A stretch of DNA of 50,696 bases, from contig NOWV01000118.1 of the NCBI GenBank assembly GCA_003344405.1, forward strand, positions 186,001 to 236,696. Direction: 5' to 3'. The translations under genes and the position numbers were made by a program. The DNA is from Trichoplax sp. H2 (Eukaryota). Shown here piece by piece: positions 5,019 through 50,696 of the stretch. The number at the start of each line of letters is the position of its first letter. Position 1 is the first letter of the stretch. A model generated the notes under the pieces. It made no database searches. It was given only the letters and a program-made list of their open reading frames with translations, and was not told where the DNA came from.

Positions 5019-5620
5019 AAATTAATTTGGCTTCAAATAGTACCGATCAAAGAGAAACGTTTGTAGATGTTGCTATAAATTGTCAATCTTTAGATTATTA
5101 AGAAATAAATAAAGTGAAATTAACAAAATAAAGGGATAAATGAAATTACACTTTATACAATAGCTATGTAATATGATATGTGAAAGTATATGATAAATGT
5201 AGAACTAAAACGTTAGTGCTTTGGTGAATTAAATCAATCTAGCTTTAAATAGTGCAGATCAAAGAGGGACATTGGTAGATGTTGCTAAAAATTATCAATC
5301 TTTAGATTGTTAAGAAATGAATAAAATGATATTAACAAAATAAAGACACAAAATGAAATTATAATCTATAAACTAGTAATATAACATCATGTGTAAAAGC
5401 ATGCATAGAAATAAATGAAATTCTATTCTATAAACTAGTAACGTAATATCGTATAAGAACGCGTATATAACGATATAAGTAAAATTTCATTCTATCTACT
5501 AGCAATTTAATATCGTATATGAAAGTATACCTAAAGAGATTAATGAAATCACGTTCTAAAAACTAGTAATATAACATTGTTTGCAAAAGTATACGATGAA
5601 TGTTGAACTAAAACGTTAAT
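5019..5620. repeat. About 210-bp duplication whose second copy contains an expanded about 60-bp subrepeat (x4)
   Basis: GATCAAAGAG...GTAGATGTTGCTA...TCAATCTTTAGATT...TTAACAAAATAAAG at about 5046 and 5257. AAATGAAAT...CTATAAACTAGTAA subunits from 5350 to 5600. GAACTAAAACGTTA at about 5202 and 5605. Confidence 0.75.
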
Positions 5621-7134
5621 GATTCGAAGTTTCAGCCTCGATCATTATGAGCTTTTTATAGGGTAATTTTAACCCTTCAAAATTGTTATAAACTACTACA
5701 TTCCTATTTTAAGAAGACAACCTTCCTACTATTGTTAGTTACGATATCAAATTTGAAGACTAAATGACAGAAGAAAGGGGTGCTTTGAAAAAATAATCCT
5801 TCATAGTCAAATATACTAGTAATGGGATAGAGAGCGCAACGATGACTTTGGATATACAGTTACAGTTTAACAAATAATTTTTTATTCTAAGAAATTGATA
5901 TCCAACTTTACTCGGCCTTAGTCTCATTAGGATCGTGATATGTATGACAATGTTGCATTAACGTAACTATAAAATAAAATTATGTACTTGAGACCTCCCC
6001 ATATAAAGAAAGAAATTAAATAATACCATTCTAAGTGATACCTACTTTCTGTCGCTAACATTTTACAACTACCAATTATACTAAAAGATTTCAATAAATA
6101 TTATTGTATTATTGTATAAGCATTTTACTATTTAACTTCTTTCCAATTCTATATAATGATTATCCTATTCTGACAACTGTAAATTATAACTAGAACTATA
6201 CCGTAATGTACACGACTCTGAATTGAAAACAATTTATGAAGGCATAACTTGAAATCAAATCTTACGCTATCGTGTTGAATTTTTTCCTATTAGAATAGCA
6301 CCAAACTATTGCCTATTTATTTTATTACTTTGCTAATAGGATCATAATTAACTTGTGTTAGCAATTACTACTCGATTCGATAAGGTATGAGTATTATTTT
6401 TTAGGAATTGTACAATTATTCCTTAAATTAAAATACTACAAAATTTGAAATAATTAAATAAAACCGTTGTTATTATATAAAGACAAAAAAATGGTAGTAA
6501 TTGACGTCATTAAAACTAGACCTAAAGCTTCTTAGCAAAGTGATAAAGAGTTATCATTAGCATTAGCGTAGATAGAATATAATAATCAAATATATATCAT
6601 CTCTGTCATCATTTAGGTAAACAGCTTAGAAAGAATAACCATCAACTCAGCTTAACAAACGAAAGTATGTGTATTACTAGCATATTTGTATTCTAGAATA
6701 TGCCCATCTTCACATAGATACATCAATTATATTATGATTGATCAACTTCTATAGATATTTACCATATTAAATTTCATTGAAGACGTGAAAATGAAAATAT
6801 TGCCAATTCAAACACAGCTGATGCAGTCATTACAAATCAGCAGTATTTTTCTGTACCTCTATACAGTATTAATATGTATAATAAAGACCAATCGTAATTC
6901 ATCAAGACAGTCATGTCTAAGGGAATTCATCTATATTACTCTTCTATTTATATTCGTCTGTGCTATAAGAACGAGTAATAAACCTTAGAAAAGCTGGATT
7001 CGTTTACTGTATTACCAGTAATGGTATGACTGCAAACTTATGTCTCTGTACGATCGGTTCCTAAACATTTCGTCAAAAAAATGAAACAGTACTACATAAA
7101 ATCATGTAGAAGTTGAAGATAATTCTAAGGATGT

Positions 7135-7725
7135 CTTATTATCGACGGTATCTTAATGGGCAAACAAATGTGAGAACGAATGACGATATTTTCTTACAAA
7201 GAAAAATCAATAGGATCGAAATACGGATTCTTAGAATAGGCGTTTGGGCACTAAGATCACCGATAACTGTAATACTTTGGCAATTGTTGATCTTAATTCG
7301 TATAAAACCCATAAAGTAGTGATCAACGTAAAAGTAGAACATCACTCTAATGGTATCTTATTGTAGGCGATATCCAAATAGGCAAATAAATGTGAGAACA
7401 AATGACGATATTTACCTAAAAAAATCAATAGGATCGAAATTTAGGGTCTTAGAGTGGCTCGTGTGTGATAGATATTTTGGAAATTCCTGATCTTAATTAA
7501 TATAAAACTCGTATAATAGTGATCAACGTAAAAGTAAAACATCGCTCTAATGATAACTTTTTATCGGTGATACCTAAATTGGCAAATAAATATGAGAACT
7601 AATGACGATATTTACTTACACAAGAAAATCGATAGGGTCGAAATTTGAAATCTTAGAATAGATATTTGAACGTTAAGAGCAGTGATAGTTGCAATACTTT
7701 GGAAATTGTTGATCTTAATTCACAT
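7135..7725. repeat. Tandem repeat, about 200-222 bp x3
   Basis: GGCAAA(C/T)AAAT(G/A)TGAGAAC.AATGACGATATTT at 7159, 7381 and 7581; TGATCTTAATT and GTGATCAACGTAAAAGTA recur. Confidence 0.85.
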
Positions 7726-9167: not shown

Positions 9168-9545
9168 ATTCAAGCCGGCAATACAAATGGACATATAACC
9201 TTAAAAAATCATATAGACTGATTTTACTTTTACTAAAAACATAACATGAAATACTTTGTGAGAATCAAGCCGGCAATGCAAGTGGATGTATAACCATAAT
9301 TAATTTTAAGGTTGATTTTACTTTACTGAAGATATAACATGAAAAACTTAATGAGGATCAAGTCAACAATGTAAATGGACCCCAACCTCAATTAAACCTA
9401 TAGATTGTTTTTACTCTGCTAAAAGTATAACCTTAAAATACTTTTGAGAATCAAGCCAGCAGTGTAAATGAACGTATAAACTTGATTCATCCTATAGATT
9501 GATTTTGCTTTACTAAATGTATATCGTAAAAATGCTTTATGAGAA
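9168..9545. repeat. Tandem repeat, about 93 bp x4
   Basis: TCAAG(C/T)C.(G/A)CA.T..AA.TG(G/A)A...GATTTTAC units at about 9170, 9264, 9358 and 9450. Confidence 0.85.
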
Positions 9546-15069: not shown

Positions 15070-15630
15070 AATGCTTAGTATTTACTCAGAATTGTTAACC
15101 GATCTTACTGGATTATAAATTATACACAACAGCTACTATCTATTCAGATATGAAATCATTGTCATAATGTATTGAAACACAAGACATTAGTCATATAAGT
15201 CAGAATGTTTAGATTGCAATTTGGCTGAATAGAACAACACTGTTGTGCAAGATTGCATGGCAGCGTGCTTAGTATTTACCCAAGGTTATAAGCCAACTTT
15301 ACTAAATTATTGCTTATACATAATATAATTGCCACGATCTGTTCAGATAAGAAATTATTGTCATAAAGGAGTTAAATACAAGACATTTGTTATATTGGTC
15401 AGAATGTCAAGATTACGATTTCAATGGATACAATAAAATGCGCTGTTGTGCAGGATTGTAAAATAGTATGCTTGGTATTTATCCAGATTATTAATTGATC
15501 TGAATATTATGTAGCTTAAACATAACAACTGCGGTACTATCTGTCCAGATAGGAAATCTTTTTCATAATATTGTGAAACAGAAAATATTATTCATATTGG
15601 CCAAAATGTCAAGATTGCGATTTTAGTGAA
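15070..15630. repeat. Tandem repeat, about 195-203 bp x3
   Basis: TGCTT(A/G)GTATTTA at about 15072, 15266 and 15469; ATCT.T(T/C)CAGATA and CA(G/A)AATGT...GATT recur. Confidence 0.8.
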
Positions 15631-34647: not shown

Positions 34648-34897
34648 TTGAATAAGTTTTTAATTTGTGTGCATAAAATATCCGGTAATTGAAATTTAAA
34701 GATTTTATATAGGTGCGGTAACTTATACGAAAATGGATCCTCCTTAATTATTTATTATTTTCTATAATTTGCTAATTGATTCAATTACAAACAGGATACA
34801 ATTGACCAAAAAATTTATCTCTGCGTAGGTTATTTCGTTGGTCGTCTTTGACTGATTAAAGATTATTATACGCGTAATTATTATAATTACGTAAAAT

Positions 34898-35860
34898 ATG
34901 GCCGATTTAACAGCAGCAGTATCTAGCTTGCCAGTGATCCATCATAAGCAACCTATGAAGGCTTCATCACCAACGCGATATGCAGCAAGTGGCAGAGAGC
35001 CAATCACTCTACGCAATTTAAGAAATAAACATTTACGCTACATGAACAGTGTCAAGAAGGAACAAAATCAGTTAGAGAAGGAAATCAGTAGAATTAAAAC
35101 GGTGTTAGATCCTCGAGATTATCGCCGAGCTTCTAAAGCAAGGCGAAGGCGTAACAACAGGAATCATTCCATTGCAAAAGCAAAATTAGGCCTTGATATG
35201 CTAAACGACAGCCGTTCAACTTCTGAATCTTCAAATTCATTACGCAAAAAGAGCTTACCTGTCATCAATGAACATCAAAGAAATGGACATTTGGCAAAGC
35301 AAACATCGGAAGAGCCCTGCCAACGTGTTAAGTATAACGAAATGGACAGAAATGATGAAGGTGAATGGTTTAATGCTACTCCCAAAAATACGTTTGATAT
35401 GATGTTACTGCAAAAGAAAAGAGATCAACGGCGTACAATTTATAAAATTTTATTAGAAGAATGCGACCTGCAAGAACAGGTGGATGATGTTCCGCGTCAC
35501 TTGCAACAGCAGGATCATGATCAAAATAAGAAATATAATACTAAAGGGCGTCGCAAAAAGGACAACTTAAAAGTTGAAATTGGTGAAGTCAGAGAATTAA
35601 TTGAGAAAAGACTAGCTATCCATGATCATTACCAAGAGAATCCCCTTGATGATTTAGCACTATTTTCAAAACCACACAACAAAGGCACTGTCAATAGTCC
35701 AATTGCAACGGATAGGAAAAACTTATCAAATCAATTTAATGGTAAAGACCTTCAAAAATCTTTACTAGATCAACTTAAAACTGAGAAATTAATTTCTTCG
35801 CAATTAAGTTCATGGCTTAGAGTTGTCAAAGGACCGAGAGCATCGAAAAAGATTTTTTAA
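34898..35860 (+). CDS. Uncharacterised 320-aa basic/charged protein with an N-terminal coiled coil; single coding exon; possibly ciliary
   Basis: Only long uninterrupted ORF in the window (963 nt, ATG in aaaatATGg context) in an AT-rich background where chance ORFs are <120 aa. Protein-like hydrophilic composition, with heptad-like LRNLRNKHLRYMNSVKKEQNQLEKEISRIK. Possible 5'UTR intron at about 34718-34794 (gtaact...aaacag). No family recognised with confidence. Confidence 0.8.
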   Translation: MADLTAAVSSLPVIHHKQPMKASSPTRYAASGREPITLRNLRNKHLRYMNSVKKEQNQLEKEISRIKTVLDPRDYRRASKARRRRNNRNHSIAKAKLGLDMLNDSRSTSESSNSLRKKSLPVINEHQRNGHLAKQTSEEPCQRVKYNEMDRNDEGEWFNATPKNTFDMMLLQKKRDQRRTIYKILLEECDLQEQVDDVPRHLQQQDHDQNKKYNTKGRRKKDNLKVEIGEVRELIEKRLAIHDHYQENPLDDLALFSKPHNKGTVNSPIATDRKNLSNQFNGKDLQKSLLDQLKTEKLISSQLSSWLRVVKGPRASKKIF

Positions 35861-36953
35861 TCAAAAAACAAATACCGGTATTGAAAATGGTCCTGACCCA
35901 TGAACAATATAAAACGAGTGGGCTTCTGCAAGCAAGAATAATCATAAGATCATATGGCAGCTATGGCAGAAGTTTATTCACTTTCACTATAACTTATGAC
36001 TGCACCATTTTTTTGCAGGACTATCGTGAACCAATTTTGGGAATAGAACATATAATCTACTCAGTATTGTACATTAGAAGAACGTATTTAATGTATAGTA
36101 AATAACTAGCTATTTTTACGTCTATTTCGCAATTTAATTTTCATTCTATCATTCATCGTCAAAATTTGCAAACCTATCTGAAATATTTAATGTATATCCA
36201 TTATTAATTTAATTTATCCTGCTTTTATTTTATGCTAATTTACATGCTATCATATATATTGGTCTTATAAGTCTCTGATTAGATTGGAGATTGGTGAATA
36301 CGGATGTATTATTTTGGGATCTTTAAGATACTTCATGCTACTGTACAATCCAGGCTAGAAAAAAATCTAAGGTCGAGTTCAAACTATAATGAGTCTATTT
36401 TAAATATTTGAAATAAGTGATTTGTAGCTGATAATGTATTTAATGCTAGCTTGAAAGATACACACAAATTATTGTAGCTCCGATTTAATTTTTATCTCCA
36501 TCTTGAAGTAATAAAGAATAATCCCATTTAAATTATCTCGCCTGAAAAGAGCGATCGAGATGGACTTGCATTATATTGTGAATATTAAACTTTAGTATAG
36601 ATTAGAAATACTCCAAAGTAATAATTTAGAGATTAAAGAAAGAAAATGTGCCTGTGCGGACAATGTCGAAGGTGCGTTATAAATCTGCGACTTACTTACG
36701 TAGTAATCAGTTCACTTACGTTAGAATTGGCATAGAGAATAGAGTTTGCTATGTATAAATTACTCATAGTAGTCAAAAGTTAGTGCATGGCGTGCAGCAA
36801 CATTGGGAATACACTTTCTAAGACTATTAAGCATCGCATCTATACGTTACTGATTCTAATTACTTTTATGGCCGTTCGTGTAGAGTTGTTTGTATAAAAA
36901 GGGGTGCAGATAATCGCAAGTCTTAAACTATAGCTAACAGTTGTACTATCTCA

Positions 36954-37185
36954 TAAAATAAACTTGATAATATAAATAAAACTAGAAGACTAACATTCTA
37001 TGCATCAAAATATGTTTGGAGATGACAAGGAGACAGAGAATAACAGTTATTGTCCGTAAAATAGGCTAATAAAATAAACTTGATAATATGAATAAAACTA
37101 GAAGACTAACATTCTATGCAACAAAATATGTTTGGAGACGACAAGGAGACAGAGAAAACAGTTCTTGTCCGTAAAATAGGCTAAT
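36954..37185. repeat. Near-perfect tandem duplication, about 116 bp x2
   Basis: AAAATAAACTTGATAATAT.AATAAAACTAGAAGACTAACATTCTATGCA.CAAAATATGTTTGGAGA.GACAAGGAGACAGAGA...TTGTCCGTAAAATAGGCTAAT occurs twice with only about 5 differences. Confidence 0.92.
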
Positions 37186-39876: not shown

Positions 39877-40480
39877 TGAGTACTATTGCAAGTACAGCAG
39901 TAGCAGCTCGTGTTGAAATGGTCGCTACCAATAGATGAGTTTGCTGCAAGAGTAGTGACTTTGTCAAGTGGCCACTGACAGGGACTGATCGAGGAGGAAG
40001 AGGGGGCCAACTTGCAGTCCACCTACAGTCAAGTTGGAAAATCACCTTGACAAGTACAGTAAAGAATGAAACGACTATCGGATCGTCCAATGGAGCCAAT
40101 GGCGTTGTTCTACGAATTGGCTATGGATGATCGATCCCCTTGTCAATGTTTTCACTTTCTTCCACTCAATGATTGAGTGGAAACCCAATGAATAGGCAAG
40201 CTTTTGCAGGCAATTTTCCTTCTCCTTTCAGCATCCCGCGCGTCTTCTCTGCAGCACAATCATTGGTAATCGAGAGGTAAAACCAGTCCAATTCTTGGGC
40301 AGCGTCCTTCTGGCTTCTGTACCGTAGCATGGCGACTGGCTACAGTACTTACGGAACTGTACAGTACAGTACAGTACTGTACTTTCTTGCGGGCGGCACT
40401 TGTACAGTACAGTACTGTACGTTGTTAACCATTGCTTGCGCCGCAATCATTGGCAATCGATAGGTAAAACCAATCCAATT
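39877..40480 (-). promoter_or_regulatory. CENP-A 5'UTR/promoter with clustered CCAAT (NF-Y-type) boxes
   Basis: CCAAT/ATTGG at 40087, 40096, 40116, 40185, 40262, 40449 and 40470; E2F-like ATCCCGCG near 40233; locally raised GC content. Confidence 0.45.
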
Positions 40481-40945
40481 CTTGGGCAGCGTCCTTCTGG
40501 CTTCTGTACCGTAGCATGGCGACTGGCTACAGTACTGTACTTAAGGAACTGTACAGTACATGTACTGTACTTTCTTGGGGGGCGGTACTGTACTATACAG
40601 TAGTACTGTACAGTACAATGTACTGTAATGGAGACTGTACTCATCTACTGTACACTGTACTGTACAGTACAGTACAGCATACAGTACTAGAGGCTCTCAT
40701 ACAGTACAGGGCTTCTGTACCGTATCATGGCGAGTGTCTACAGTACATTACGGAACTGTACAATACTTTCTTCTGGTCGGTACTACAGTATAATGTACTG
40801 TACTGTAGCGTAAACTGTACAGTACTCATCTACAGTACAGTACACTAGAGACTCTCATACTGTACTGTAGAGGGTCTCTAATGAACACGATAGCTACAGT
40901 ACATACAGTACTGTACAGTATGTTGTTAACCGTTACTTGCACCAA
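40257..40945. repeat. Degenerate tandem repeat (about 187-210-bp units, about 3 copies) in the CENP-A/MVB12 divergent promoter
   Basis: The block CAATCATTGG...GTAAAACCA...TTCTTGGGCAGCGTCCTTCTGGCTTCTGTACCGTAGCATGGCGACTGGCTACAGTACT occurs at 40257 and 40444 (period 187). A third partial copy GGCTTCTGTACCGTATCATGGCGAG starts at about 40710. GTTGTTAACC occurs at 40421 and 40922. Confidence 0.85.
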
Positions 40946-41490
40946 AAGCCGATTCAAATGATGCTGATATCCAACTATCCAAATGATCAAAAGTGATTCA
41001 TTTTCTCATCAGTCTACAGTAGTGTACGATGTATCGTGTATTACTATCTAGAGTCAATACTAACTACTGTATTGAAAGTTCGTACTACTCTCAATTAGCA
41101 TCAATATAGCGTAGCGTACTATAGAATACTATGGACTACTGTAGGGGATTCTACCGTATGCTAGGTACTGCACTAGAGACGCTATGATCATTTGGTAATG
41201 ACAGATGAGGGGAAAATTTCATCGTTTGGGAGGGACTTCAACCTTATACTGTACTGTACTGTACTGTATATTGATTTCTTGATAGAACCGAAAATGAACC
41301 GAATCGTTGGCAGGTCTAGACAGTAGCAAAGTACAGTGTACAGTACCTTAAATACTGTACCGTACAGTACACAGACACTTGATGCCTACCGGAAGTACTG
41401 TACTGTACAGTACATACTGTACTCTTTCTTATGACTGAACAGCGAACACGTCTACAGTACGTACTGTACTGTACTGTACACTGTACATGA
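40316..41490. repeat. TA(CAG/CTG/CCG)TA-saturated tract (candidate transposon footprint array) 1
   Basis: Dozens of chained, mixed-orientation pentamers, e.g. TAcagTAcagTAcagTActgTA (40360-40381), TActgTActgTActgTActgTA (about 41247-41268) and TActgTAccgTAcagTA (41353-41369). Confidence 0.85.
41388..41396 (+). promoter_or_regulatory. ETS/GABP-type site ACCGGAAGT upstream of MVB12
   Basis: Perfect ETS consensus 283 bp upstream of the MVB12 ATG. This motif is typical of bidirectional housekeeping promoters. Confidence 0.5.
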
Positions 41491-41670
41491 GTCGTTATTG
41501 CTGTTCGACTGTTATTGACTAGATACGATTTGATGCTACACAACGTTACTGCTAATCCTCCTTAGTCTCCGATGCTGGACTAAATCGTTTCTCTTCAACG
41601 ATTCCAACATTCAATCGATGGTCATCATCTTTTGCCATTGATAGCCCTTACTGTAATTTATCCATTAAGG

Positions 41671-46085: not shown

Positions 46086-49083
46086 TTAGGAATAGAAAGA
46101 AAATCTACTTTGTGATTTAATCCGACCATTGTTCGTCATAGCTTCTTGCATTTGCTCATGAGATGGAAAATGCTTTAGATTTCCGTAAGCGGCAACGGAT
46201 AATTTCGAACTTAGTATCCTATCTACAACGCGTATTAAGCTTTCTTCCGTAACTTGCTCTGTATTGAGAGATAGAACAACGCTTAGTCATAATAACTTGG
46301 ATGGTATCCATTAGCAAAGCCTTAAATAGTGTACCTATGTTATCGCATAATTCTTGAACTGAGGTATAAGCAGGTAGAGATAAGGTTTGCCTAGAGATTA
46401 AATTGAATTATACGTACAGTTGACCACGATGTAAAATAGTGTAGCTTATGTCTATCCATTGAATTTTACTAACCGACATAAATCTTCTAGCATAATCTGT
46501 TTCGATTCTAAATTCATTAATAGTACAGACTGAAGTTGCCTTTTAGCACGAGAGACTTCGTCCTAAAGCAAATATCGAAATTATAATATTGCAAATATAA
46601 AGCAATCAGTTATTATAGAATAAACATAGGATAACATCCTTTTATTATCGTAACATCAGAAATAACGGAACAGTTCACGCCATACCTTATGAAATCCATT
46701 TTTCATATTACAAATTGTGGTCATGACCACTTCAGCAAGCTGCCCCATCTAAACGTCAAGGAATCACTAGCGTTATGACAACTTCAAAATGTTCATACGT
46801 GTACGTAAACGTTAATTTGCCACCACAATAACAATACTATTATTATAAGCTAGTTTAGATTTATAATATAAAATACCTGTTCAGGAGGAGCACTTGCATT
46901 TATTACAAATAAGCCACTATCAACGTAACAATGTTGTAAGCAAAGGCAAGAAAACATCCAGTAATAGTTACATAGAACAGATCTATAAATTCTAGAATAC
47001 ATTCCTTTTCCAGGACCACCAGCTGAGAAAGATCCGCCACCTCCCATCAATAAGCTCAAAACTGCTAAACTAAAGAAATCGGGATCCATATATGAAACAC
47101 CTTCTAAAGCAAAAGCTGCATGGGACAATTCAGACACCATTGCTGCAGTCATGGTCGGACCTGCAGGGGCCTTTGGTAGGTCCATCTTCAATTACAAGCA
47201 TACCGGATATTTACAGATGGAAGCGCAATGCGCAAGAATCTGCTATTACTGTTACTTACAATTACATTCGATCCTATATATTCCGTCTCATCCTCCACCA
47301 GTGATGTTGATGTTGATGACTTAAACCAACTAGGTACATCGCTTACGAAATATTTTTCAGCTAATTCCACAAGTTCTTGATGGTTAACGCCGACCCCACC
47401 AATAACTAGTCGTTTCGGTGTGTAGAGCAGTTCATGATAACGTTGTAACGACGATGTATCGATCTCGGGAAAGGTTTCCATATCAGCAAATTTCGAAAAT
47501 CCAACACTCTTTTCTCCGTAAGCTGCCTAAACGTATAACAACACAAAACATTAGTGCACTTTTTCCTTATCAGTCGGTGTCAGTAGCTTTATTACAGTAT
47601 TTATCTACCCCATGTATTAGTTCAGTTAAAATAATTTCTGCATCCGCCATCATTTTAATGTGTTCTAATTCTGCATTTAGGGCCGCTTTTTGGTTTTCTA
47701 CCTAGAAAAATGACAACACACATGATATCGGATTTACCAACGAGTAATAATATTCCTTTCTAAAAAGTACAATTACCACGACTGCATTACAAGTATAATG
47801 TGAGTGAATTAATATGCAGATAAGATTATCATTTACATTTCTCTGTGAAAGGTCAGGAAATAAAATAGAATCGGCTAAGGCTGCAAACATATCTGGTATT
47901 CCGTGGCGAAAGCCAGAGATAGAATAAATGGCACAATCTCTAAATGAGTGTAGCAAACTAGTCATTAGAATTTCAAGCATTGAATGCAATTACTAGAATA
48001 ATACGCGTATAACTAAAGCTAATCAATAAAATTGTACTGTCATTAAAGATTGCAGTTTAAATAAGCAAATTAGACATTCTGATTTAAAATAGAGCGCAAG
48101 GCAGACAACAATAACACATTTAGCTAAATGCATAGCGTATAATCTTGATATTTTGCCTTTTCTTTAGCAGTATTTTGCACTATAATTACTTGTAATAAAA
48201 GTCACGTTTCAAGTATTGCTCACAGGAAATATAATATTTATTCTTTTAGGAAAGAACATTTTGTATGTCGTTGGTCGTATAGTGTACGACATGTTGAACA
48301 ATACACACTGTCCCTTCGTTTAGCATTCTGAGTAGCATTCAAATTTGATGAGACTTTTACTTAGTAGTTACCTATTCATTTCACATTGTACATTCACACC
48401 ATAGGAATCTAGTTTATCGATGAAATCTTCTTTATTCTCAAACTTTCGTGAACCCTATTTCATTATTTAGTAATTTGAACAATTATTCATTAGAAAAAAG
48501 TGAAGTATCTACAATTCATTTATAAACGCTGAAAAGATGATTCTTGTCAATGCCATGGTTACTGCTATAGAAGCCATGATCGATGATGAAAACACAAGTG
48601 CAATCAGCAACTTGCCTTCTCTCTACGCGTATTATTTACAAATAGCATCCATACCTGGAAACATATCTTTCCCATCAAGTGAGAAATGCCTTTAGGGAAA
48701 GCTAATTCATAGCGTGATCCAGCGTCCACTATCGCTACATTTTAAAAAAGAAGACGTGCGCATACCTTAGACAAAGCTATGAGCATCGTTGTCAACTTTG
48801 TTCTACATGCCATGAGCATACTATAAGCATCCCTACCTCCAATATAGCCAACTTGTCCATAACATGGTGCAGTAATGACCTTAATGCCATTGGATAATTG
48901 TGTTAACTGTGGATTCTGAGTACTATTCTCGATAGTAGGAGCATATTTAGGAGTAGCTATATTAGGCAAAGGTTGCGATAAAGGTATCTGTTGATACGAT
49001 GAGCAATAATAACGTGATAGCTGGTGGATATATCGACCAGATGAAATTTGCCGAGGAGACTGGAGAAGTCGTTGCCATGCCAT
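46086..49083 (-). CDS. PMPCA: Mitochondrial-processing peptidase subunit alpha (peptidase M16), about 520 aa, 11 coding exons
   Basis: Exons (minus strand) 49083-48837, 48734-48655, 48454-48372, 47939-47837, 47701-47609, 47526-47260, 47185-46877, 46748-46686, 46562-46474, 46390-46335, 46258-46086; GT-AG with consistent phases (1563 nt). Arg/Ser-rich transit peptide, TQLSNGIKV, DAGSRYE, the alpha-specific glycine loop LMGGGGSFSAGGPGKGMYSR, and RAKRQLQSVLLMNLES. Confidence 0.95.
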
Positions 49084-49290
49084 AGCTGAATCTTGTGTGT
49101 AGCGTTAAGCTGCAGACAGCCTGAAGTAGCCTGAAGTACTGTACAGTAAGCACACGTGTGAATTTCCTATCGACTGTACTGTACTGTATTGCATCGGAGT
49201 CCAGTGTCAGTCCGAACTGGGACTGATGTATGAAGTGCCGAGTTCATTGTCTACAGTATAGTGCACTGTTATATACAGTGCAATGTACGG

Positions 49291-49382
49291 TACGGTACTG
49301 CCATTGCCAAAAATTGGGACTCTTTTCGCTTCGATCTCTCCTCTGCTACGGTACTGCCATTGCCAAAAATTGGACTCTTTTC
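49291..49382. repeat. Direct duplication of about 36 bp, period 56 bp
   Basis: TACGGTACTGCCATTGCCAAAAATTGG(G)ACTCTTTTC at 49291 and 49347. Confidence 0.85.
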
Positions 49383-49462
49383 AGTTAGACTAGTGCAAAC
49401 TCCCGTCGCTTTGCTGACGGTTTACGATAATGTGCTCATTTAACAGATAGTATTACCATTTG

Positions 49463-49923
49463 TCGTAGACCTGTCAGAGGTTCAGTAACTTTATACCGTG
49501 TACTGTGTAGTAGTAGAGTGTATGACATACAGTATACTGATATACTGTACATACCGCATTTCTCTAATCTTACAGTAACTCTCCATTTTTAGCTACTGTA
49601 TGTGGAACACTCTTACCCATTCATTCATACTGTATAATATACAGTATATACTGTATACTGGATATATATGAGTGCAAGCTCCTGTCGCTTTACTGACGGT
49701 TTACGATAATGTGCTCATTTAACAGAGGTTCAGTAACTTTATACCGTACCGTGTACTGTCTGCTGTACTGTACAAATGCACGGTACAGCACTACTGTACA
49801 GTACAATACTGTACAGTACAGTACTTTTACTACAGTACTCATATTGTAGTAGAACCGAACCGACGAACCACAGTTCACGTCGACATAAATCGGTTTGGAA
49901 TCGAACCTCTGACAGGTCTACGG
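49463..49923. mobile_element. Non-autonomous TIR DNA element (MITE-like), 461 bp, 7-bp TSD
   Basis: Perfect 20-bp inverted repeat CGTAGACCTGTCAGAGGTTC (49464-49483) / GAACCTCTGACAGGTCTACG (49903-49922) plus one mismatched terminal base. Flanked by direct CCATTTG (49456-49462 and 49924-49930). Subterminal AACCG repeats at about 49853-49862. No ORF. Confidence 0.65.
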
Positions 49924-49967
49924 CCATTTGATAATGTACCCATTTCTTATACTACAGCACGGTAGAG

Positions 49968-50382
49968 TAGAGTACAGTACTGTACTATACCAGGCCAATC
50001 AATGTACTGTACTGTCATGGAGCAAAATAGATGTCAAAAGTAGAGGCAGCCTTGGACAGTGTACCAAACAAATTTTGCATGCCTTTGGACGACATCTATT
50101 TTATACTGTACATCTTGTAGTATTGTACCCAGTGTCTACAGTATGTCACAGTCAATGTACTGTAAGTACTGTACAGTACAGTATAACTAGAAGTACTGTA
50201 GAGTACAGTACTGTACCAGGCCAATCAATGTACTGTACAGTACTGTACAGTACTGTACTGTCATGGAGTAAAATACTGTAGATGTCAAAAGTAGAGGTAG
50301 CCTTGGACAGTGTACCAAACAAGTTTTGCAAGCCTTTGGACGACATCTATTTTACACATCTTGTAGTATTGTACCCAGTGTC
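49968..50382. repeat. Tandem duplication (about 170-185 bp alignable, period about 230-245 bp)
   Basis: CCAGGCCAATCAATGTAC...GATGTCAAAAGTAGAGG(C/T)AGCCTTGGACAGTGTACCAAACAA...GCCTTTGGACGACATCTATTTT...CATCTTGTAGTATTGTACCCAGTGTC occurs at about 49990-50136 and 50216-50382. Confidence 0.9.
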
Positions 50383-50696
50383 CAGATGAATCATCGTCAA
50401 TTCGTCATTATCAATCAATGCTAAAGGCGATGACAATATTTTTGCACAATAATCTACCGTAGCATTATACCTGTTCAATATGATGACAGTACTGTACAGT
50501 ACTTTGCAAGCTTACAGAGCAGTCTAAATCCTCACTACTAAGTACTGTTGTACTGGGCCGGACTTGCGCAGGACCCACTCCAAGCCTTCATTGATTACAC
50601 GATCCTCGATAAAGAAAGCTCCCGATGATCATGTTTAATAAATAAATAATAATACTACTTTTACTTTAAAAATCGCATTTCCTTCAAAACTCTATC

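Follow-up and report, generated by a model that had tools for sequence, protein, structure and literature searches.

What process writes short, TA-framed units into the promoters of a placozoan genome, and at what rate? The question is raised by a stretch of 50,696 nucleotides from Trichoplax sp. H2 (GenBank assembly GCA_003344405.1, contig NOWV01000118.1, positions 186,001 to 236,696 of the forward strand), which we refer to throughout as the window. Upstream of a minus-strand gene for the alpha subunit of the mitochondrial processing peptidase (MPP-alpha, the PMPCA orthologue) lies a field of units of the form TACWGTA, that is, TACAGTA or TACTGTA, and within that field a tandem duplicate whose two copies differ in length by multiples of five bases. 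We tentatively favour the view that these units were left behind, as excision footprints, by a Tc1-like (IS630-Tc1-mariner) cut-and-paste element with CAG ends and a 3-base stagger, although our confidence in it stays a little below an even balance.

The pair itself supplies the central observation. Copy 1 (49966..50136) and copy 2 (50192..50382) were delimited by alignments and as repeat families (D2, D4 and D9 for copy 1), and are separated by a 55-base spacer (50137..50191) that is itself made of TACWGTA units, at 50137, 50158, 50167, 50172 and 50177. Both copies lie 0.9-1.3 kb upstream of the MPP-alpha start codon (49083, minus strand), where the first-pass annotation of this DNA had placed them. 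In the core alignment they are distinguished by 4 plain substitutions and by four differences in length, all at a TA, which measure 5, 20, 5 and 5 bases. The first is an extra 5 bases in copy 1 (49983..49987), directly adjoining an existing TACTGTA; it had been described as a TACTGTA insertion, and the 5-base step at a TA stands, but the added unit is CTA and not CTG. The second is an extra 20 bases within an existing run of copy 2 (50230..50249), made up, as had been claimed, of alternating CAG and CTG units, here two palindromic 10-base pairs; as DNA this insert is predicted to form a hairpin of -11 kcal/mol (z -2.87), while no fold is predicted for the matching part of copy 1. The third is an isolated TACTGTA in copy 2 (50274..50280), at a site free of local structure, opposite a bare TA in copy 1 (50028-50029), and with the closest unit ending 13 bases upstream, the earlier statement that it has no neighbouring unit from which to slip is borne out. 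The fourth is a TACTGTA in copy 1 (50104..50110) where copy 2, at 50350, is 5 bases shorter; the difference at a TA is as first reported, but an additional T/C substitution makes the case less clean than it was written. Two of the four events (the CTA unit and the 20-base insert) thus adjoin existing units and the other two sit at isolated TAs, and the longer form is found now in one copy and now in the other, which agrees with the original remark that extra units occur in both copies against few substitutions.

When every TA(CWGTA)n is collapsed to TA, the copies become 151 and 146 bases long and three of the four length differences disappear, leaving one 5-base gap, the CTA unit, together with 5 substitutions, one of them required at the fourth site. 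The tandem repeats of the first 38 kb of the window served as gap-size controls: across 11 other repeat pairs only 2 of the 43 gaps are multiples of five, most gaps being 1-4 bases, and chance is therefore a poor explanation for the 5-base differences. The pattern has a boundary. The assertion that all length differences are multiples of five at a TA holds inside the core (49966-50136/50192-50382) and fails to the left of 49966, where the alignment is poor and the gaps are 3, 2 and 6 bases; a fifth unit difference, at 50194-50200, may be hidden in this poorly aligned stretch. Even if a footprint origin should prove wrong, the pair still shows these promoters to undergo a 5-base mutation process that is unusually high and specific.

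The same units are strikingly abundant in the window as a whole. TACTGTA (66 occurrences) and TACAGTA (64) are its two commonest 7-mers. Dinucleotide-preserving shuffles lead one to expect 13.2 of them where the window has 130, a roughly ten-fold excess, and none of 100 shuffles reached the observed total. Most of them, 93, are packed into the 2,622 bases of two arrays, against 37 in the remaining 48 kb. Array 2 (49100..50520, delimited by unit counts) is the promoter-proximal field 5' of the MPP-alpha gene that contains the duplicated pair, and it begins with a unit at 49137, 54 bases upstream of the ATG. Array 1 (40300..41500, delimited by unit counts and alignments) is a similar field with three related copies, A, B and C. 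It lies between a histone-fold gene on the minus strand, to which it is upstream, and, on the plus strand at about 43.7 kb, a weak MVB12-like match. In contigs from four public sequencing runs (X1, X2, X5 and X11) aligned to the window, word depth over the arrays is in the thousands, as opposed to 30-110 in bins away from them; this type of sequence is therefore spread over the genome.

The composition of the units is as telling as their number. The CAG and CTG forms stand at 64:66, and of 36 adjacent unit pairs 17 are of the same type and 19 of different types, in keeping with an independent coin-flip model (p 0.87), while a slippage model in which 90% of neighbours are the same is rejected (p 1.6e-10). 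Single units account for 72 of the 94 unit chains. Outside the arrays, CAG (20) and CTG (17) are the top two of 12 composition-matched TA-xxx-TA triplets, the other ten averaging 6.6; isolated units far from the arrays are about three-fold enriched, and the flanks of units outside the arrays are ordinary AT-rich DNA in which no longer motif appears. Within the arrays, 53 one-mismatch variants accompany the 93 perfect units and are evenly spread over the seven positions, as expected of young units decaying neutrally.

Both arrays are instances of a repeat that has already been described, the (ACAGT)n promoter microsatellite that is dominant in Trichoplax. In the sections of the 2010 survey by Wang et al. 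cited here, pentanucleotides are reported as the commonest Trichoplax microsatellites (61.8%), with ACAGT making up 78% of them; 54% of the ACAGT repeats were placed no more than 1 kb upstream of a gene, where a transcription factor site was suggested (PMC2871265). The arrays agree with this description in their placozoan host, in a position less than 1 kb upstream of a gene, and in perfect runs longer than 12 bases, for example four CTG units at 41247-41268 and three CAG units at 40360-40376, with period-5 rows in Tandem Repeats Finder as well; inside the coordinates of the duplicated pair the runs are mixed and none is perfect. More recently, repeating ACAGT and ACGG emerged as motifs from a network that had learned Trichoplax contact maps, the hub motif being given as repeating ACGG (preprint, 10.1101/2024.11.14.623548), and Kim et al. 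2025 tied the promoter hubs of placozoans to a motif, located at loop anchors, that belongs to the terminal repeats of Mutator elements, and raised targeted integration into promoters as one possibility (PMC12221973). Five predicted transposon-derived transcription factors have been reported from Trichoplax, in a paper that contains nothing on Tc1 (PMC10027918). A further paper, PMC6067683, was set aside, its single ACAGT match being a primer.

A mechanism for making such units is known from elsewhere. The canonical footprints of Sleeping Beauty are TACAGTA and TACTGTA, a duplicated TA framing three bases of the CAG ends; they derive from a 3-base overhang, and the centre base is set by the resolution of an A:A mismatch (10.1101/659086). 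Consider, then, a TA in promoter DNA that is visited by a Tc1-like element with such ends. Insertion at the TA, followed by excision and end-joining, would convert TA into TA-CAG-TA or TA-CTG-TA, a net addition of 5 bases. Each footprint would supply a new TA, repeat visits to open promoter DNA would presumably lead to mixed (TACWG)n runs with single units dotted among them, and slippage and hairpin-driven changes would later reshape the longer runs. The end product would be an (ACAGT)n repeat concentrated upstream of genes.

Much of what is seen in the pair has the form that such visits would leave. All the length differences fall at a TA and amount to a net 5 bases (TA + 3 + TA) or a multiple of it, and collapse removes every one but the CTA unit, the site at 50104-50110 needing one substitution besides; the inner triplet is CAG or CTG, with both forms present and neighbours independent of one another, save for the one difference of four that is CTA. 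Equal and randomly ordered CAG and CTG forms are not predicted by plain slippage, and classical slippage, which changes length only within runs of identical units, sits badly with two of four differences at isolated TAs and with randomly mixed unit types. We infer from this likeness that the differences are gains, made by a transposon in a process that would be recent. As for direction, in array 1 an extra TACTG is present only in copy B and not in A or C, and parsimony over the three copies points to a gain; since it is a CTG unit adjoining a CAG unit, simple copying of the neighbouring unit does not account for it. In array 2, the 5 bases of the TACTGTA at 49594-49600 are missing from one contig in each of the four runs, at a depth of 410-840 compared with 30-110 in bins outside the arrays; this unit belongs to a multi-copy repeat, and its absence suggests that the repeat family mostly lacks it. 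Absences of 5 bases from contigs, seen at 49528, 49594 and 49763, may represent paralogues rather than alleles, because the arrays draw thousands of contigs from elsewhere.

At the same time, a number of results weigh against a footprint origin. The window yielded no element with TA-CAG...CTG-TA ends: of the 31 candidate pairs, every one has an arm in the arrays and 30 lie wholly inside them. The first-pass annotation had proposed looking for expressed transposases, and on the window's own open reading frames (ORFs) the outcome was negative, no transposase domain appearing in 157 ORF scans (14 + 143, with some overlap). The survey sections cited above put transposable elements at 0.13% of the Trichoplax genome, none of them active, and describe the mariner/Tc1 copies as degenerate or lacking ends, there being 11 fragments, each single-copy, of which three have intact ORFs and no terminal repeats (PMC2871265). 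Among the loose contig ends listed there is no shared transposon end, agreement being 0.37-0.47 except for a 5-read end at 49441 that does not start with CAG. The shorter, non-canonical scars that Sleeping Beauty assays yield alongside the canonical ones (TACATA, TATGTA, TACGTA and others; 10.1101/659086) are scarce, with counts of 3, 0 and 1 for these three in the arrays and a density no higher than outside, although such scars are the usual companion in cell assays and not a strict requirement of the footprint class. TACSGTA is about 30-fold denser in the arrays (10, versus 6 in the rest of the window) and needs a separate explanation. A longer, GTAC-based site is possible, because C follows the unit in 59 of 116 array flanks and GTAC (119) outnumbers the 7-mer (93) in the arrays. 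Slippage or hairpins suffice for two of the four events, the 20-base insert and the CTA unit, and the direction of gain or loss of all four, with no outgroup, is unpolarised. The first-pass interpretation of the units as footprint-type insertions thus keeps the identity of the motif, the ten-fold excess, the equal and random CAG and CTG forms and the isolated TAs, but finds neither a source element nor a transposase in the window to go with them.

The most serious competitor, which we consider unlikely though well within reason, holds that the units are a selected cis-regulatory or architectural site, a palindromic TACWGTA or GTAC-core sequence bound by a dimeric protein and multiplied by slippage, hairpin expansion and unequal exchange, with its likeness to footprints a coincidence. 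The genome-wide placement of the repeat upstream of genes and the suggested transcription factor site (PMC2871265), the choice of repeating ACAGT and ACGG by the contact-map network (10.1101/2024.11.14.623548) and the motif carried by placozoan promoter hubs at loop anchors (PMC12221973) all speak for selection, as do the surplus of GTAC and the frequent C in the flanks; the 20-base difference is a palindromic pair of 10-base units that folds into a hairpin, and the CTA unit of the first difference adjoins an existing one, as the proposed modes of multiplication would have it. Slippage, however, is unable to make a unit where there is only a TA, 13 bases away from the nearest unit, as at 50274-50280, and only 17 of 36 adjacent pairs match in type. 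Nor do the one-mismatch variants betray constraint at any particular position, and selection accounts for the retention of units but not for a mutational step of 5 bases. An arbitrary palindromic 7-mer, moreover, would take the form TAC-N-GTA only about 1 time in 64. A different way of dispensing with the transposon, to which we allow a slim chance, is templated insertion: microhomology-mediated end joining or template switching at promoter breaks, priming on the TA or GTA of a neighbouring unit. Here the tight clustering of units (93 of them fall in 2.6 kb and 37 in the other 48 kb) is an asset, in that a template is always near, including one 13 bases from 50274; the CTA unit, the TACSGTA variants and an ACCGT difference between the repeats that start at 49392 and 49671 could be copies of local variants, and no element is needed in a genome reported to be nearly devoid of transposons (PMC2871265). 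Such events are nonetheless expected to vary in length and register rather than to keep strictly to TA + 3 + TA, and they explain neither the three-fold enrichment of isolated units far from the arrays nor the 50:50 mix of CAG and CTG, nor where the first unit came from.

Two further alternatives concern the pair rather than the units. The long alleles may be ancestral and the differences precise 5-base losses, by TA microhomology or slippage, in which event the pair would be uninformative on new insertions. The four sites are without an outgroup, either direction demands events in both copies, and the loss of whole units in runs is ordinary microsatellite behaviour; yet the loss of an isolated unit has a microhomology of only 2 bases and no known dedicated mechanism behind it, only 2 of 43 control gaps are multiples of five, and the sole three-copy site, that of array 1, favours gain. 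As this alternative concerns direction alone and leaves the origin of the units to be explained, we judge it improbable, to about the same degree as templated insertion. That the duplication is an assembly artefact and its differences sequencing or assembly errors seems to us scarcely credible. Among the contig pieces listed, none spans 49363-50498 (those listed break off at 40316, 49139 or 49362 and begin again at 50499), which is the point in favour of an artefact; artefactual duplicates, however, are normally identical, while 5 substitutions and a set of structured 5-base units separate these copies, and similar differences are seen between the copies of array 1 and against the contigs of other assemblies at 49528, 49594 and 49763. 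Separately, a 17-base stretch common to both copies returned 57 loci in a metagenome scan; these are chance matches and not placozoan DNA, because none shares more than a 17-mer with 49301-50696 and none has at least 4 TACWGTA units. Overall, then, we regard the locus as a real and known repeat with a plausible, unproven origin in excision footprints, a verdict we hold with slightly less than even confidence.

How often would such footprints have to be written? The first-pass annotation held that they arise at a rate comparable to point mutation. That goes beyond the evidence, resting as it does on 4 events versus 5 substitutions; set out per site, four events at 13-14 TAs against five substitutions in about 150 bases would make the per-TA event rate very roughly ten times the per-base substitution rate, and a handful of active copies targeting promoter TAs could be sufficient to sustain it. 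The accompanying suggestion of a domesticated transposase is pure conjecture and likewise outruns the evidence. In its fullest form the idea would be that a low-copy or domesticated Tc1-like transposase continuously writes TACWGTA scars at open-chromatin TAs, at a per-TA rate above the per-base substitution rate, and that the resulting (TACWG)n arrays have been co-opted as promoter or 3D-hub elements; we consider this combination quite improbable.

The wider setting of the arrays is that of ordinary eukaryotic DNA. The window has a G+C content of 31.7% and intron-split genes, and it is, to judge by its coding sequence, placozoan, since two exons match TRIADDRAFT_21554 of Trichoplax adhaerens at 98% and 99% identity. 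The MPP-alpha gene's first coding exon (48835..49083, minus strand) opens with the ATG at 49083 and agrees with TRIADDRAFT_21554 in 82 of the 83 initial residues; two more exons lie at 46850..47526 on the same strand, with a Peptidase_M16_C domain (Pfam PF05193), one of them 98% identical to that protein. Within the span of this gene, at 47302, six window bases are absent from the single covering contig in X1, X2 and X5 and present in X11. Pfam scans of the 14 and 143 ORFs, partly overlapping sets, returned only the M16 peptidase, the histone fold and the weak MVB12 match, and scans of the window for tRNA genes and Rfam families gave no matches, which also disposes of a T-loop-like string near 49890 as a tRNA. 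An alternative genetic code (code 6) was considered and dropped, the extra ORFs being what AT-rich sequence yields by itself. The longest uninterrupted ORF of the window (34895-35860, plus strand; 321 residues) has no Pfam match and no match above 0.77 in a protein atlas search, and such an intronless orphan is unusual for an intron-rich region. The first 38 kb are gene-poor and hold tandem repeats with periods of about 95-420 bases, at 5019-5618, 7106-7721, 9170-9545, 15072-15623 and 36953-37185.

Other elements and variant units are interspersed with the TACWGTA units. Array 2 contains a very high-copy dispersed repeat, recognised from bin depth, from repeat families D7 and D10 and by alignment, with a core at 49389..49500 (within 49224-49597) and a partial second copy at 49671-49747. 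Its bin depth is 21,000-67,000 in the four runs compared with 30-110 away from the arrays, many contigs diverge as loose ends at 49389, and its two window copies differ by a 31-base stretch with CAG at both sides. It may be the promoter-associated element that others have annotated as Mutator. A perfect 20-base inverted repeat (49464-49483 and 49903-49922, 419 bases apart), with CCATTTG one base outside each arm, resembles in its layout a small terminal-inverted-repeat element with a 7-base target duplication, enclosing part of the unit field. TACGG and TACCG units, with the TA + 3 + TA frame and a G or C centre, are present in array 2 at 49286-49300 and 49743-49757 and in the arrays generally, and the 5-base ACCGT difference between the repeats starting at 49392 and 49671 falls at 49499 and 49747; it is speculation on our part that an element with CGG ends would leave TACGG and TACCG scars. 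In array 1, copy B carries at 40558-40565 the 8-base TACATGTA (TA + CATG + TA) where copy A has two CAG units, a length difference between the two copies of 4 bases and not 5.

If the units are indeed excision footprints, the consequences would extend well beyond one promoter. The ACAGT repeat has gone unexplained in Trichoplax since 2010 and is the only reported instance in which the commonest microsatellite is a pentanucleotide; a footprint origin would provide a concrete mutational mechanism for a promoter-sited repeat that has lately emerged as a predictor of 3D contacts. An animal genome nearly free of transposons would then owe its dominant microsatellite, and with it a major cis-regulatory motif, to accumulated transposon footprints, pointing to high but hidden cut-and-paste activity in a genome thought to be without active transposons. 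In this context, transposons would create regulatory sequence without staying in place.

The excision-footprint reading is, apparently, the unpublished and new part of this account. In a search largely outside subscription journals, excision footprints and the ACAGT repeat of Trichoplax were not connected in any paper, and the word "footprint" does not occur in the 2010 microsatellite paper (PMC2871265). With the (ACAGT)n of Trichoplax adhaerens described there, the arrays share the organism group, the pentamer and the position upstream of genes; what those sections describe, however, is a perfect tandem microsatellite, whereas the TA framing, the mixing of reverse complements, the isolated single units and the 5-base differences at bare TAs seen here are not part of their description (Wang et al. 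2010). With the footprints of Sleeping Beauty and Tc1-like elements (10.1101/659086) they share the same two 7-mers, the TA duplication framing the bases of CAG ends, and the occurrence of both centres. Those footprints are described as single scars at donor sites of a known element, accompanied by shorter scars, while here there are thousands of units in promoter arrays, no source element is known for them, and the shorter scars are not enriched. A third comparison is with the placozoan Mutator terminal-repeat motif (PMC12221973), likewise a sequence derived from DNA transposons in the promoters of housekeeping genes, in Trichoplax and its relatives. It belongs to a different superfamily and consists of resident terminal repeats, whereas the TACWGTA units would be the putative scars of elements that have been excised.
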